Below, one piece after another: positions 13,820-23,598 of a stretch of DNA of 64,000 nucleotides. The position numbers were made by a program, and so were the translations under genes. The DNA lies in assembly GCA_963755915.1 (NCBI GenBank), contig CAVWLP010000002.1:4608001-4672000 (forward strand), given 5' to 3'. The stretch's first letter is position 1; the number at the start of each line of letters is the position of its first letter. The notes beneath the pieces are model-generated. The model made no database searches, was not told the DNA's origin, and saw only the letters and a program-made list of their open reading frames with translations. Source of the stretch: an uncultured Phycisphaerales bacterium (GTDB lineage Bacteria > Planctomycetota > Phycisphaerae > Tepidisphaerales > Tepidisphaeraceae).

Positions 13820-14821
13820 TCACACCCTCGACCTTGTCCGCAGCAGGAGCCATAGAAAAACAGGCCCGCCCATCAGGCCTGTCAGGACTCCCACCGGCAA
13901 AAGACTCGCCAGGAGTCCCTCGGCGCTTAGATACCGCGAAAGCGCATCAGCCCCCATCAGCAGAATCGCACCGATGGCGGTCGAAATCGGCAGAAGCCGC
14001 CGCTGGTCGGTGCCGACGATCAGCCGCGCCACATGCGGGCACACCAGGCCCACGAACCCGATCGGCCCGCTGATCGCCACGGCCGCCGCGGTGACCAGCG
14101 ATGCCGCGACCAGCGCGATCCACCGCAGGCGATGAATGCGCACCCCCATCGACTCCGCCTCGCCGTCATCCAGCACGGCCACGTTAAGCTGCCCCGCAAA
14201 ATAGAGCAGGACTGCCCACCCCACGGCAATCAGCACCGTCGCCACAACCCGCTGCTCGCGGGTAATCGCCTGAATCCCCCCCACCAGAAACCCCATCGGC
14301 CCCCCATTTCCCGGCAGTTGCTCAACCAGCGCATTGACCAGCAGAAACAGCGAGCCATTCACCGCATTCACAATCACCCCCACCAGCAGCAACGTCACGG
14401 GCTCCAGCCGCCCGCGCCGCCCGGCAATCCCCAGGACAATCGCCACCGCCCCCAACGCCCCCACAAACGCCGCCGACTCCTGGCTCAGCGGCGCGAGCAT
14501 TCCCAGCCCCTTGGCCACCGCCGCGAAGACGGGAAGCTGCCAGAGATACGCCACCAGCGACGCGCCACTGCTGACGCCAAGCAAATAGGGATCCGCCAGG
14601 GGATTTCGCAGAATCGCCTGATAAGCCACCCCAGCCGCCGCCAGGGCCGCGCCGATCAGAGCCGCGTCGATGACGGATTCCGCCCGAAATTGCCAGATTT
14701 CCCCGGACGGCCAACCGAATCCATTGGACCCCACACAAATCGCCACCGCCATTCCCGCAGCCACGCAAGCCGCGCACGCGATCAGGGTCACAGCCAATCT
14801 TTGCGCGCTCCAGCGGTTCAT
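13820..14821 (-). CDS. FecCD/BtuC-family iron/cobalamin ABC permease
   Basis: 'YQAILRNPLADPYLLGVSSGA', 'SGPIGFVGLVCPH', 'LPVGVLTGLMGGP'; true start taken at ATG 14821, outside the intron. Confidence 0.9.
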   Translation of the reverse strand: MNRWSAQRLAVTLIACAACVAAGMAVAICVGSNGFGWPSGEIWQFRAESVIDAALIGAALAAAGVAYQAILRNPLADPYLLGVSSGASLVAYLWQLPVFAAVAKGLGMLAPLSQESAAFVGALGAVAIVLGIAGRRGRLEPVTLLLVGVIVNAVNGSLFLLVNALVEQLPGNGGPMGFLVGGIQAITREQRVVATVLIAVGWAVLLYFAGQLNVAVLDDGEAESMGVRIHRLRWIALVAASLVTAAAVAISGPIGFVGLVCPHVARLIVGTDQRRLLPISTAIGAILLMGADALSRYLSAEGLLASLLPVGVLTGLMGGPVFLWLLLRTRSRV

Positions 14822-14879
14822 CCGGTCCCAGCTTTTTACCCCCAACGATGCCGCGATGCGAATGAATGCAGGCCTCACG

Positions 14880-16852
14880 GTAGAGTAGAGAACTGAACGA
14901 CCCGATTGCCGCTCAGCTCTCCCTCTTCGAACCGGACGAGCGGGTTTCCCGCATCCGGCTCTCACGGTATTGTTCTTCTCAAGCATTCACGGTCGGAACA
15001 GGTCGCAGGCTGATGAGGCCCAGACGCTGCAACTGTTCGTACCAGCTCCTCGCTCCGCGCACACGGAACGGACGCTGGCTGCGACGTTTAAGGTGTCGTT
15101 CCAGTCGCTCCTGCACAAATCGGTTGATCTGACGGAACGCCTTGCGCGGATAGCCTTTGCCGAAGTAGTTGGCCCATCCTCTCAGGTGCTCGTTGATCTG
15201 TACGATCAACGCCGGGATGGGCACAAAGCCTGCTTCGGGTCCGGTCATCTCCCGCAATTTGTCCCGCTCACGCTGCATCGACTTGCTCGAAGGACAGAGG
15301 TTCAGATAACGCCCCGGCCCGCCTTGCAGGCTCCGGTCGTACCGGAACCTGTACCCGAGAAAGTTCAGACTTTCGCCCGGCTCTTTCAACTTCACCGTGC
15401 GGGTCTTGTCGGTGTTGATCGTCAGATCAAACCGGCCTTGCAGCGTGCGTTCCACGAACTGCTTGATCTGAGGGCCTATATACCTTGCCATGATGACAAA
15501 GTCGTCGGCGTACCGGATCAGCCGGGCGTTCGCCCAGCGATGCGGGCCATCGGATCGGTGGAACAATTTATCAAACCAGTGCAGATATAGGTTGGCCAGC
15601 AGCGGCGAGATCACTCCGCCCTGCGGCGTTCCCTGTTTGCTCCGGGTGACTTTCGGTGGATCGCCGGGCTTCTCGCCTTCTTCGACGATCACCGCCTTCA
15701 GCCACATCCGGATCAGCTTCAGCACGCTTCCGTCCGTGATCCGCTTCTGGACACACGCCATCAGTTTCTCATGGGGAATCGTGTCGAAGTACGACTGCAA
15801 ATCCGCGTCATACACTTCCCTTCGGCCCTGCTGGAGGTTTTGCTTGATCGCCTCCAGCGCATCGTGAGCCGAGCGACCGGGACGGAATCCATACGAACAG
15901 TCCAGGAAATCCGCCTCGAAGATCGGCTCGATGAGCAGCAGCACCGCCATCTGCACCACGCGATCTCGGATCGTGGGGATGCCCAATGGACGCCGCTTGC
16001 CGTTGGCTTTGGGAATGTACACGCGCTTCACCGGCTGCGGGCGGTAGGTGCGGGTCTTGAGCGATTCTTCGATCTCGCTCAGGAATCCACTGACGCCGTG
16101 CTCGGAGTTTTGCACCTTCTCGATGCTCACCCCGTCCAAGCCGGGCGCCCCGCCGTTGGCGGACACCCGGTCCCACGCCGCTTCCAGAACATCGCGCCGG
16201 CAGATCCGGTCGTACAAGGTGTAAAACCGAAACCCCGGTTCCCGCTTGGCTTTGAGGTATAGCTTCTGTCTCAGAAGAAAGACTTTCCCCGGCAGACCCC
16301 TGGAGTTCACCCTCAGGTGCTCCGGCAAGTCTGTCGGATCATCCGTACTGTCAGGTTGTCCCTGCAAGCGGGCCTCTCTTCTTCTTACTTCCGCTCGATA
16401 CCGTCAGGGCTCCTTGGCTCGCGGCAGGCTTCGCCTCCGCTCACGGGCATTACCCCGCTTCTCAGCTACTATGAGCCCATCCGACTCCCCACGCTTCCCG
16501 TCCCTTGGTTATGTCTTTCCAACGAGCCGCACAACGATGCGTGGGGTCTCTCAGTTCCCGATCTTGTCTGTCGGCACGCGCCGTCCCCATCGACCCCGAG
16601 GAGCCGGACGATTGCTCGCACCCGCTGCTTCATCGTCCGCGCCGGCTTGGCCCTCTCTGACGGGTTGGCCACTCCCATTGGCGTAACGAGGCTGGTTTGG
16701 GTTCGCTTAACGCTACGGCTCGCGCCTTCGCCTTCCGGGGCTTCGCGCGACCGATTGCTCCGTCGTCACGCCCGGGCGGCTACACGGCTAACGGGTCATT
16801 CCATGGTGAACTCCTTTCAGTTCACAAGACAAAACCGGTTTCACTGACGCAC
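14880..16852 (-). mobile_element. Group II intron (full length, 1973 nt)
   Basis: 5' GTGCG at 16852; domain V GAGCCGGATGCGGGAAACCCGCTCGTCCGGTTC with AGC triad; domain VI ending CTCTACTCTAC at 14880; internal RT ORF. Confidence 0.92.
14979..16367 (-). CDS. ltrA: Group II intron reverse transcriptase/maturase, no HNH domain
   Basis: '[17 protein letters not shown]', 'SYGFRPGRS', '[14 protein letters not shown]', 'RYADDF', X domain 'LRGWANYF'; ends without an endonuclease domain. Confidence 0.96.
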
Positions 16853-16982
16853 CAGAGGCGCTGAGGCGCGGAGAATCAGAGGAGAATTGACATTGAAATA
16901 TTTTGCCTCGAACACCATCGACGCGGGAAATCCCCACTCGCCATTGCTATCTCCCTCCCCACCTCCGCGCCTCTGCGTGAGA
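16853..16982. repeat. REP-like palindrome family B (CGCAGAGGCGC...GCGCCTCTGCG), one arm split by the intron; related copies 23453-23519, 25441-25472
   Basis: Rejoined exons give GCGCCTCTG|CGTGAG, the inverted copy of the arm at 16963-16982. Confidence 0.8.
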
Positions 16983-17879
16983 TCATCCCCCCGGATGCAA
17001 AAGTGCGGCCATCTTCCCCGCCAACTCGCCCACTCCAAATCCCGGCATCTCCCCGTCCCAATCGGTAATCACGTAAACCCGATGATTTTTCACTGCCGGC
17101 AAATCTCCCATCGTTTGCCAAGCCTGGTCCCCCGATTCGACCACCTGCGGCTTGCGATCCCCATCGGGCACGAGCCGGATCACGACCTCGGGCTTCAGTG
17201 TCATGATCATCTCCCGATCCACCTCCGCATAGGGCTCTCCCAGCCCCGCGGCGGCATTCTCGCCACCGGCGATGCGCAGAATCTCATCCAAGAATTCCCC
17301 CGGCCCCGCGACGCCGAAGCCTGATGAATCGCTCGTCACCACGAGCGTCTTCACCGGCGGCAACCCCTTCACGCGCTCCTTCACCTCTTGCAATTTTTCG
17401 CGCAGCTTGGTCGCCGCCAACTCTCCTGCCGCCGGATCCCCGATCGAGCGGCCCAATTCGGTCATGGCCGCACAAATCTCATCAATCGTATCCAGCTTCA
17501 AATTCACGATCCGAATCCCCATCTGGGCACACCGCTGGGGAATAAACCCCGGCAACCGATCCGGCGCGTATTGCAGCACCAGAAGATTCGCCCCGCATTC
17601 GGAGAGTTTTTCCCAATCGATATTCTGGTAATCCCCAACCCGCAGGCGTCCCGAAACCCCCTCCCGATCATCATCATAATTGCTCACCCCCACAATTCGA
17701 TCGCCCTCCCCCATCGCCACCAGCAGACTCGTCCCAGCCGGCGTAATCGAGGCGATCCTGACCCCGGGCAAGCTCCGCGGCGGCTGAACCCCAGTTCCGT
17801 GGAAGGTCATCAGCGCCGCCGCCCCTGCCACCAGGGCCAGCGCGAACGCGAATATCCCCGCGACTCGAGGTTGACCCAT
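16983..17879 (-). CDS. BtuF-like periplasmic metal/cobalamin-binding protein
   Basis: Signal anchor; 'RIASITPA', 'IVGVSNYD', 'LPAVKNHRVY' typical of helical-backbone receptors; co-oriented with the permease. Confidence 0.85.
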   Translation of the reverse strand: MGQPRVAGIFAFALALVAGAAALMTFHGTGVQPPRSLPGVRIASITPAGTSLLVAMGEGDRIVGVSNYDDDREGVSGRLRVGDYQNIDWEKLSECGANLLVLQYAPDRLPGFIPQRCAQMGIRIVNLKLDTIDEICAAMTELGRSIGDPAAGELAATKLREKLQEVKERVKGLPPVKTLVVTSDSSGFGVAGPGEFLDEILRIAGGENAAAGLGEPYAEVDREMIMTLKPEVVIRLVPDGDRKPQVVESGDQAWQTMGDLPAVKNHRVYVITDWDGEMPGFGVGELAGKMAALLHPGG

Positions 17880-23434: not shown

Positions 23435-23598
23435 GTTGCTGTTGAAGAGGTTTCGCGCAGAGGCGCCGAGCGCTGAGCTTAAAATCCAATTTCTCTGCGA
23501 GCACTGCGCCTCCGCGCGATCTACCTTTTCTTAGCTGTAAAGAGAGGAATCGTTATCCGCGAAAGCCGTGGTCCATGAATTTGCGATGTTGTTATCTA

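Follow-up and report, generated by a model that had tools for sequence, protein, structure and literature searches.

How does a group II intron that is not of class IIC come to lie inside a palindrome, and what picks out that site? The question is raised by a 64000-nt stretch of DNA from an uncultured Phycisphaerales bacterium (assembly GCA_963755915.1, contig CAVWLP010000002.1, positions 4,608,001 to 4,672,000; hereafter the window), in which a complete group II intron of 1973 nt runs from position 16852 to position 14880 on the minus strand. An earlier note, made from the letters of the window, had placed the intron at these ends and taken its target to be a dispersed palindrome. Reading of the junctions and matches to Rfam bear out the ends, and removal of the intron restores CTCCGCGCCTCAGCGCCTCTG^CGTGAG (^ marks the junction), which is the 3′ arm of a palindrome whose other arm lies, as the note had claimed, just past the stop codon of a btuF-like gene. 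We consider that this is very probably a recently active, endonuclease-less intron of IIB-like E/F type, which retrohomes by pairing of its exon-binding sites (EBS) with the intron-binding sites (IBS) of the exons into a repeated palindrome resembling the REP (repetitive extragenic palindromic) elements. The intron and the parts of its target are as follows, C2 and C3 being contigs of the assembly.

14880 to 16852, minus strand: group II intron, 5′ GUGCG to CUCUAC 3′ (Rfam RF00029 and RF02005; exact ends common to the 12 full-length copies in the genome)
16853 to 16873, minus strand: 5′ exon part of the palindrome 3′ arm (CTCCGCGCCTCAGCGCCTCTG), holding IBS2 and IBS1 (junction reading)
14874 to 14879, minus strand: 3′ exon end of the 3′ arm (CGTGAG), with IBS3 as the C at 14879 (junction reading; EBS3 covariation)
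16963 to 16982, minus strand: 5′ arm of the palindrome (TCACGCAGAGGCGCGGAGGT; TCACGCAGAGGCGCGGAGG read from 16982 to 16963), directly after the stop codon of the Peripla_BP_2 gene (sequence)
23456 to 23466, minus strand (C2:4631456-): second intron-free target core, in another palindrome of the family (word search)

Copies of the intron and the palindrome family

On the minus strand the 5′ junction at 16852 reads GCGCCTCTG^GTGCGTCAG and the 3′ junction at 14880 reads CTCTACTCTAC^CGTGAGG; as RNA, the exon GCGCCUCUG is followed by the intron start GUGCGUCAG, and the intron end CUCUACUCUAC by CGUGAGG. The genome (6.63 Mb in three contigs, the assembly being 81% complete) was searched with the intron by blastn and contains 12 full-length copies, of which nine match it at 100% identity and the remaining three at 99.95%. 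Each of these three variants carries one ribozyme substitution (nt 137 twice and nt 334 once), and the open reading frame (ORF) is the same in all 12. Alignment of the flanks confirmed the expectation that other copies would lie in the same palindrome family, as the 5′ junction GCGCCTCTG^ is found in 14/14 cases, comprising the 12 full copies and two 5′ fragments, and the known 3′ exons (n=13) all start with CG (CGTGAG in seven, CGCGAA in four and CGCCTC in two). Among the partial copies, one is internally deleted and sits at a normal target (C2:2850190-2851629, with nt 1-1402 joined to nt 1934-1973 and nt 1403-1933 missing) and one is a 5′ fragment of intron nt 1-118. A 5′-truncated copy (C2:332521-332793, intron nt 1701-1973) is preceded by unrelated DNA and sits at a CGCGAT 3′ half-site, which is what would remain after abortive reverse transcription. 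Truncation and internal deletion of this kind are the usual forms in which the products of retromobility decay. A 41-nt stretch at C3:86277-86316, isolated and followed by CTTCTCTAC, matches the domain V (DV) region at 95% and is probably the remnant of another group II intron.

The copy number is no artefact of assembly, since in soil-metagenome run X1 the intron is covered at a depth of ~52 compared with ~5 in its flanks (~10×) and in run X2, from the same study, at 26-40 compared with 3.2 (~8-12×), and metagenome contigs lead from the intron ends into differing flanks. In runs X5 and X6 of a second study, intron contigs are present and the flanks are barely covered. Among the DNA contigs none was found that bridges the window locus from flank to flank, and no empty allele of it was seen. 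By an ORF heuristic, at least eight of the 12 copies have a nearest long upstream ORF that is co-oriented with the intron and ends 75-330 nt before the site; on the downstream side, several ORFs are convergent. Cumulative GC skew, taken as a guide to replication-strand bias, was noisy in this fragmented assembly.

Occupied and empty sites were then compared throughout the genome. The exact 11-mer GCGCCTCTGCG occurs 65 times on both strands, at 51 empty and 14 occupied sites; shuffled words of the same composition occur 14 times on average and 49 times at most, as against the 51 empty exact 11-mers. By eye, the family has the form ATCTCACGCAGAGGCGCAGAGGCGCAGAGA - variable loop - TCTCTGCGCCTTTGCGCCTCTG^CGTGAGAT, which covers nearly all of the empty exact cores, and its arms consist of two or three 8-nt units, with conserved stems and variable loops. 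A relaxed census by mismatch-tolerant word counts (one mismatch, with a complementary partner within 150 nt) gave 87 arms in ~53 bins, so that the family is one of dozens of elements (~50) and not hundreds. An nhmmer census with a 36-nt arm profile returned 35 hits, fewer than the 51 seeds, and was discarded as insensitive.

We folded each site as an 87-mer (75 nt upstream and 12 nt downstream of the junction) alongside 200 random 87-mers. The junction falls within the paired 3′ arm at 12/12 occupied and 44/51 empty exact sites, and the mean folding energies are -45.5 kcal/mol for occupied sites and -41 kcal/mol for empty sites compared with -25.9 kcal/mol for the random 87-mers. The insertion point is inside the stem, 6 nt before its base. 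Being palindromic, the element offers the target on both strands: the 5′ arm of the window palindrome carries an empty core on the plus strand at 16967-16977 (C2:4624967+), which, like that at 23456-23466 on the minus strand, was found where the earlier note had reported it, and in seven occupied palindromes the exact core of the opposite strand is still empty, none being doubly occupied.

Like REP elements, these are short, dispersed, imperfect extragenic palindromes, with the 44 empty cores noted above in strong hairpins. REP families exceed 100 copies per genome, whereas here there are 65 exact cores and the 87 near-cognate arms fall into ~53 bins, and as a rule the repeat has no GTAG head. 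The genome has two Y1_Tnp genes of IS200/IS605 or RAYT (REP-associated tyrosine transposase) type, at C3:1125127-1125471 and C3:576500-576694, and no palindrome motif was found within 1.5 kb of either. Over the 14 nt that follow the stem (+7 to +20) the share of T is 44% compared with 20% genome-wide, the loops are long, and a scan for a simple terminator consensus flagged nothing at the window copy at 23.4 kb. Given the dozens of copies, the absence of RAYT linkage and the empty terminator scan, we call the family REP-like rather than REP: of the high-copy REP-like repeat first proposed, the multicopy family stands, whereas 'high-copy' does not.

The intron and the core word were also surveyed in the genomes of relatives (n=20), with the reversed core word as a control. 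A full-length match to the intron was present in one of the 20 (G002, at 81% identity). The core word GCGCCTCTGCG outnumbers its control by 91 to 7 in G010 (93% complete), 86 to 12 in G001, 58 to 9 in G011 and 26 to 4 in G008, a 5-13-fold excess in four genomes in which no full-length copy of the window intron was found, and in these congeners minus/plus pairs of cores lie 40-70 nt apart, as palindromes predict. The octamer-unit palindrome family thus appears to be genus-wide and apparently undescribed. Its enrichment in congeners lacking a detected full-length intron indicates that the repeat is spread across the genus and that the intron is a sporadic, recent arrival.

Recognition of the target site

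To follow the recognition elements through the lineage, we used 80 loci encoding homologues of the protein encoded by the intron (IEP) at 43-82% identity, with intron ends set by profiles from multicopy sets, and for covariation 31 introns aligned together with the adjoining 15 nt of their 5′ exons. The three EBS elements, which had been left for confirmation, were all located, each with covariation support.

16654 to 16659, minus strand: EBS1, CAGAG(A), at nt 194-199 of the intron, within the loop of the hairpin CCC-GUCAGAGA-GGG, pairing with CUCUG at the 5′ exon end (covariation, 31 introns)
16681 to 16684, minus strand: EBS2, ACGC, intron nt 169-172, in the internal loop UUACGCCAAU (nt 167-176) 5′ of the EBS1 hairpin (covariation)
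16591, minus strand: EBS3, G262, pairing with the first 3′ exon base, C (covariation, 33 introns)

Covariation with the 5′ exon in the 31 introns identifies the CAGAG loop (16655-16659, intron nt 194-198) as EBS1, the position that had been suggested for it: 87.6% of cells are paired between this loop and exon positions -1 to -6, 6/6 pairs are changed on both sides, 0/500 shuffles were as good, and sliding the partner by one to three columns reduced pairing to 39-55%. EBS2 scored at fixed alignment columns gave 41.9% of cells paired, a low value because the offset of IBS2 varies, and this was replaced by flexible offsets with a cross-intron control. Measured in this way, the EBS2 tetramer forms at least three of four Watson-Crick pairs with the exon at about -12 to -5 in 28 of the 31 introns, compared with 43% for mismatched-intron controls; ACGC goes with exon GCG in 12/16 cases and ACAC with GTG in 10/11, and never the reverse. 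The EBS3 column and position +1 are Watson-Crick matched in 32/33 introns (G/C, A/T and T/A), with mutual information of 1.11 bits. In the window intron, EBS2 CGC pairs with exon GCG at -9 to -7, EBS1 with CUCUG at -5 to -1 and EBS3 with C at +1. Two introns from a single genome (L067 and L069 of OW818690), which are 98.6% identical, differ in EBS3 (G and A) together with position +1 (C and T), in EBS1 (CAAAGG and CAGAGU) and in EBS2 (ACGCC and ACACG), each matching its own exon, GGTGTCCTTTG^C or GGTGACCTCTG^T. Such coordinated changes amount to natural retargeting within one genome.

We propose that the intron would multiply by retrohoming into GCG-CC-CUCUG^C within the 3′ arm of the octamer-unit palindrome, where RNA-DNA pairing would select the site through EBS2 (CGC/GCG), EBS1 (CAGAG/CUCUG) and EBS3 (G262/C). 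With an endonuclease-less IEP, cDNA synthesis would presumably be primed from replication-fork strands, by analogy with other endonuclease-less introns. The palindromes lie in intergenic DNA, in most cases a short way downstream of a co-oriented gene, where insertions would spare coding sequence and could be removed from read-through transcripts by splicing. The repeat family is independent of the intron, being present as well in congeners that yielded no full-length copy, and the intron therefore has the look of a recent invader of a ready-made multicopy safe harbour.

Several observations weigh against this account as a complete one. With only 3 bp for EBS2 and 5 bp for EBS1, the pairings are short by the standard of IIB introns, and no RNA partner was identified for positions -6 and +2, although neither varies among the occupied sites, so that something beyond pairing (IEP contacts, structure or selection) may contribute to the choice of site. 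Furthermore, the genome has 85 GCGCCTCTG^C sites for which the 3′ exon is known, and of these 11/48 hairpin sites are occupied compared with 2/37 non-hairpin sites (Fisher p = 0.034, odds ratio 5.2), an excess which is not predicted by pairing alone and which reflects either a mechanistic preference or selection against insertion outside intergenic palindromes, the present data not separating the two. The assignment to class F also has a single named reference behind it, Ni.ha.I1, which itself falls in a different Rfam family (D1D4-4 compared with D1D4-6).

Of the alternatives, the one that survives best, and which we nevertheless hold to be rather unlikely, is that the intron inserts at any copy of a ~10-nt motif and that purifying selection leaves only the insertions in intergenic palindromes. 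The 21 GCGCCTCTG^C sites with a base other than G at +2 are all unoccupied and 19 of them are non-hairpin sites, and the motif is most frequent inside the repeat, as this would have it. However, the abundance of the motif is itself due to the repeat, which makes survivorship a modifier of retrohoming by pairing rather than a true rival to it, and about half of the related intron species in other phyla have EBS elements matched to short repeated motifs, which argues for adaptation to repeats.

We find it improbable that the site is chosen by structure, as in class IIC, with the ribonucleoprotein reading the palindrome hairpin as DNA or RNA and a short EBS1 only fixing the phosphodiester. The hairpin excess given above would be expected if so, 11/13 occupied sites being in strong hairpins; the nearest solved reverse transcriptases (RTs) are IIC enzymes (6ar1 and 7uim), EBS1 and EBS2 are short (5 + 3 bp), and in 20/30 related intron species the junction lies in a predicted 3′ arm compared with 64/171 control positions. 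However, an EBS2 is present and covaries with the exon, whereas IIC introns have none according to two papers (PMC3753933 and PMC7923331), and insertion takes place inside the stem, 6 nt before its base, and not after it. A strong hairpin is also absent at 2/13 occupied sites and at many sites of the relatives, and selection against insertions in coding DNA explains the hairpin excess equally well. As pairing of EBS2, EBS1 and EBS3 explains the site, hairpin recognition is not needed, although it might still play a part; the palindrome keeps the role of homing site given to it by the earlier note.

That the copies were spread as palindrome-plus-intron segments by duplication or recombination, or are an artefact of assembly, rather than arising by independent retrohoming, is hardly credible: near-same loops are indeed shared by C2:346878 and C2:4544104, and by C2:3865238 and the deleted copy C2:2850190, but loops and outer flanks differ in most of the 12 copies, the 3′ flanks differ even in the similar pairs, seven occupied palindromes retain an empty opposite-strand target, a 5′-truncated copy exists, and the depth in X1 and X2 supports ~8-12 copies with contigs running into differing flanks.

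Ribozyme anatomy and class

The remaining features of the locus are as follows.

14979 to 16367, minus strand: IEP, 462 aa from TTG (443-aa form on record), with Pfam RVT_1 at 1.4e-33 and GIIM at 8.6e-14; same ORF in 12/12 copies
14929 to 14961, minus strand: DV, 33 nt, with AGC triad and loop GAAAC (or AAA) (RF00029 match; fold)
14882 to 14926, minus strand: domain VI (DVI), with bulged branch A at 14886 and 6 nt from the branch A to the 3′ splice site (fold)
16790 to 16796, minus strand: alpha (ACCCGUU, intron nt 57-63) (pairing with alpha′)
16620 to 16626, minus strand: alpha′ (AGCGGGU, intron nt 227-233), within the terminal loop of a DId3 hairpin that spans nt 214-248, which is a signature of E/F type (covariation)
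16983 to 17879, minus strand: upstream gene for a periplasmic binding protein (Peripla_BP_2, BtuF/FhuD-like) (domain match)
13820 to 14821, minus strand: downstream gene for a FecCD-family ABC permease (BtuC-like) (domain match)

The element has the hallmarks of a group II intron, i.e. GUGCG...AC ends, a DV with its catalytic triad and a DVI with a bulged A at 7 nt from the 3′ end, and it matches Rfam RF00029 (DV/DVI) at 14880-14963 with 53.6 bits (gathering score 40) and RF02005 (D1-D4-6) at 16584-16814 with 51.2 bits, above the gathering threshold. It is of the retroelement form, with an RT and maturase ORF between DIII and DV, in domain IV. DV begins with GAGCC, which contains the AGC triad, and the IEP consists of RVT_1 and GIIM with no DNA-binding or endonuclease region, so that the full-length AGC DV and the missing endonuclease, both read from the sequence beforehand, hold. 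The intron sits in sense orientation in the intercistronic spacer of two minus-strand genes, one for a binding protein and one for a permease, and hence interrupts no gene, which agrees with the proposed insertion into an ABC operon without gene disruption.

The DV loop can be drawn as GCGG-GAAAC-CCGC, while the minimum-energy fold gives GCGGG-AAA-CCCGC; a 4-nt loop is found in neither. Pairing of alpha with alpha′ is kept in 25, 20 and 19 of 29 sequences for three overlapping 5-nt windows, with 8-13 distinct sequence types, and domain I is IIB-like in the consensus fold of 29 relatives. Outside the ORF the ribozyme measures ~584 nt, 485 nt before and 99 nt after it. IIC introns have a shortened DV with a CGC triad. 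They are further set apart by having no EBS2-IBS2 pairing, an EBS1-IBS1 pairing of only 3-4 bp, insertion after terminators or attC sites with low sequence specificity, and a small ribozyme of ~400 nt (412 nt for O.i., PMC3753933), whereas the window intron has an EBS2 loop that covaries with the exon, an EBS1 pairing of 5 bp (up to 6-7 bp in relatives), an invariant 11-mer at 13/13 junctions with a known 3′ exon, and its ~584-nt ribozyme with a 33-nt AGC DV. The ribozyme is therefore IIB-like of E/F type and not IIC, given the presence of EBS2, an EBS1 of at least 5 bp, the ribozyme size and the insertion inside the stem, and the non-IIC lineage put forward by the earlier note is upheld by EBS2, the ribozyme size and the E/F-type features of DId3.

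For the traits of classes E and F we followed Nagy 2013 (PMC3753933) and Toro 2013 (PMC3552965). According to the former, the IIE and IIF lineages are marked by an alpha′ that lies in a terminal loop and by a DV loop of 5 nt, and in Pe.th.I2 and Ge.ur.I1-1 the branch point is followed by 6 nt. In the window intron, alpha′ in the DId3 terminal loop (nt 227-233) pairs with nt 57-63, and recognition of the 3′ exon is of IIB type, with an EBS3 in domain I (and not delta beside EBS1), as G262 tracks position +1. The IEP shares 44% identity (317 bits) with that of Ni.ha.I1 from Nitrobacter hamburgensis plasmid 1, a class F intron of subgroup g3 (Toro & Martinez-Abarca 2013, PMC3552965), and scores 223 bits with the GsI-IIC RT, while the closest solved RTs are the IIC enzymes 6ar1 (6.7e-65) and 7uim (8.3e-54). 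As the Ni.ha.I1 ribozyme belongs to Rfam D1D4-4 (102 bits), whereas the window intron and a relative (L023) belong to D1D4-6, the window intron is not g3. In another relative, L052, the EBS1 and EBS2 loops CGAAU and ACACG are exact complements of the printed IBS1 (AUUCG) and IBS2 (CGUGU) of Ge.ur.I1-1. The closest published kin are thus probably the class F introns around Ge.ur.I1, 'class F-like' being our inference from comparison with one named reference. In the IEP tree, Ni.ha.I1 served as that sole named reference and as the outgroup, the other entries being the loci of the relatives; four rows (L034, L048, L064 and L076) were mis-extracted ORFs on very long branches and were disregarded.

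Known target strategies and the wider lineage

Published accounts of class F introns and Ge.ur.I1-1 of Geotalea uraniireducens (PMC3753933 and PMC3552965) describe an endonuclease-less RT/maturase, an IIB-like ribozyme with alpha′ in the DId3 terminal loop, a 6-nt branch spacing and EBS1, EBS2 and EBS3, all of which the window intron has, and a 5-nt DV loop, which is one of two ways of drawing that of the window intron; the two were set side by side by description. In Nagy 2013 (PMC3753933), Ge.ur.I1-1 is reported to use additional IBS1-like motifs 9 and 19 nt upstream, which makes for a phased exon like those described here; its target is never called a genomic repeat, and the word 'repeat' occurs 0 times in that text. 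Class C introns (B.h.I1 and GsI-IIC; PMC4424553) are alike in being endonuclease-less, in having many near-identical copies and in occupying GC-rich hairpins downstream of genes, a harmless intergenic location, and their RTs are the nearest solved structures. However, they insert after terminators or into attC, whereas the window intron inserts within a 3′ arm at a fixed sequence, and it differs from them by EBS2, by an EBS1 of at least 5 bp, by its ~584-nt ribozyme and by its 33-nt AGC DV.

Colonization of repeats has precedents of two kinds. RmInt1, of class D, is an endonuclease-less IIB-type intron with EBS1/2/3 pairing which colonizes the multicopy element ISRm2011-2 and reaches high copy number. 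It is alike in colonizing a repeated element, but its target is a transposase gene rather than a ~70-nt non-coding palindrome, and its IEP is of a different class. REP sequences and bacterial interspersed mosaic elements (BIMEs) are insertion targets of IS1397 and ISPpu9/10 (Tobes & Pareja 2006, PMC1525189), which likewise use dispersed extragenic palindromes as landing pads, and two of the nine copies of the group II intron of P. putida KT2440 are REP-associated (PMC1525189), compared with 12/12 copies of the window intron at one nucleotide position. The repeat studied here differs from REP and BIME in its dozens of copies, in having no GTAG head as a rule and in having no linked RAYT. A 2015 review recognizes three target specificities of bacterial group II introns (homing sites, terminators and attC) and treats every class except C as homing to specific sites (PMC4424553), and a 2021 paper states that no role of upstream secondary structure is reported for IIB introns (PMC7923331). 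By term search, a 2020 neighbourhood study contains none of the words palindrome, repeat and intergenic (PMC7306698), and our full-text literature searches found no paper on non-IIC introns homing into phased or palindromic repeats.

We see in the window an apparently active intron of a known kind, whose targeting is ordinary IIB-style base pairing aimed at a repeated sequence. Its target habit, of which there is little or no published description, may be common to the lineage as a whole. A non-IIC intron would thereby have reached 12 copies by ordinary EBS-IBS pairing on a multicopy non-coding palindrome, with many relatives behaving similarly, a natural 'safe-harbour' solution that would explain how an endonuclease-less IIB-type intron proliferates without harm to its host. 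Targetron design could also draw on this intron, which is compact and apparently active, on its defined 10-nt target and on the natural retargeted variants.

The relatives carry labels of the Planctomycetota, Acidobacteriota, Gemmatimonadota, Thermodesulfobacteriota, Nitrospirota, Bacteroidota and other phyla, and several have similar exons, e.g. ATCTGCGGAATCTGCGGAATCTG^CG (Gemmatimonadales), CTCTGCGCGCTCTGCGTCTCTG^CG (Bryobacterales), GCGGCTCTG^CGTGAGAT in a metagenome-assembled genome (MAG) of Desulfomonile, and TTTGTGAAAATTTGTGAAATTTG^TG. Recurrence was scored for an intron species when at least half of its sites showed the last six exon bases again close to the junction, with at most one mismatch. 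By this measure the exon end recurs in 23/36 intron species compared with 97/285 random junctions, with offsets clustering at -8 to -10, -18/-19 and +8. The test replaced a period-8 autocorrelation over 49 sites of relatives, which was weak (0.305-0.316 at periods 8-9 compared with 0.268-0.298 at others). Hairpin context is less widespread: for many sites of the relatives the folding energy does not surpass the mean of the controls (-25.6 kcal/mol), some multicopy relatives have a non-palindromic target (motif TTGGGTTCGNATTT in a Planctomycetota MAG), and in a multicopy relative from a Thermodesulfobacteriota MAG the sites lie 10 nt after a hairpin. Phyla are mixed within well-supported clades of the IEP tree, which, for loci drawn from MAG bins, points to horizontal transfer.

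Taken together, we suggest tentatively that an E/F-type (class F-like) lineage with labels from at least ten phyla may have specialized on short repeats built of phased units, in many cases the arms of REP-like palindromes. The exon repeat unit of 8-10 nt equals the spacing of IBS2 and IBS1, so that each unit boundary is a potential homing site. If this is true, such 'repeat homing' would add a fourth to the natural target strategies, the other three being unique homing sites, terminators and attC, families of introns and repeats would track each other across horizontal transfers, and the phased exon may explain the puzzling alternative 5′ splice sites of Ge.ur.I1-1. The present findings also draw attention to an apparently undescribed octamer-phased palindrome family across the genus, similar repeats flanking related introns in MAGs from other phyla.

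Three further observations concern individual relatives. In MAGs labelled Desulfomonile, Tepidisphaerales and Thermoanaerobaculia (L009:159-173 with its 3′ flank, L006 and L020), the exons end in near-same terminal motifs, CTC(T/C)G^CG, with GCGTGAGAT, which points either to a repeat family that itself extends across phyla or to mixed MAG bins. On a contig of a MAG labelled Bifidobacteriaceae (L028), an intron 3′ end is followed by 8 nt (TGTCGTTG) and then by a new intron 5′ end (GTGCGCCAGG), an arrangement that would represent tandem insertions into successive repeat units. Finally, in a clade labelled Acidobacteriota (L011-L014, L056 and L080; e.g. L013:1005), the 5′ ends are apparently GAACA, GUACA or GAAUA and not the near-universal GUGYG; beyond these letters the introns align as usual (CCAGGCUAAGCC), and such ends are in keeping with the EBS1/IBS1 register.

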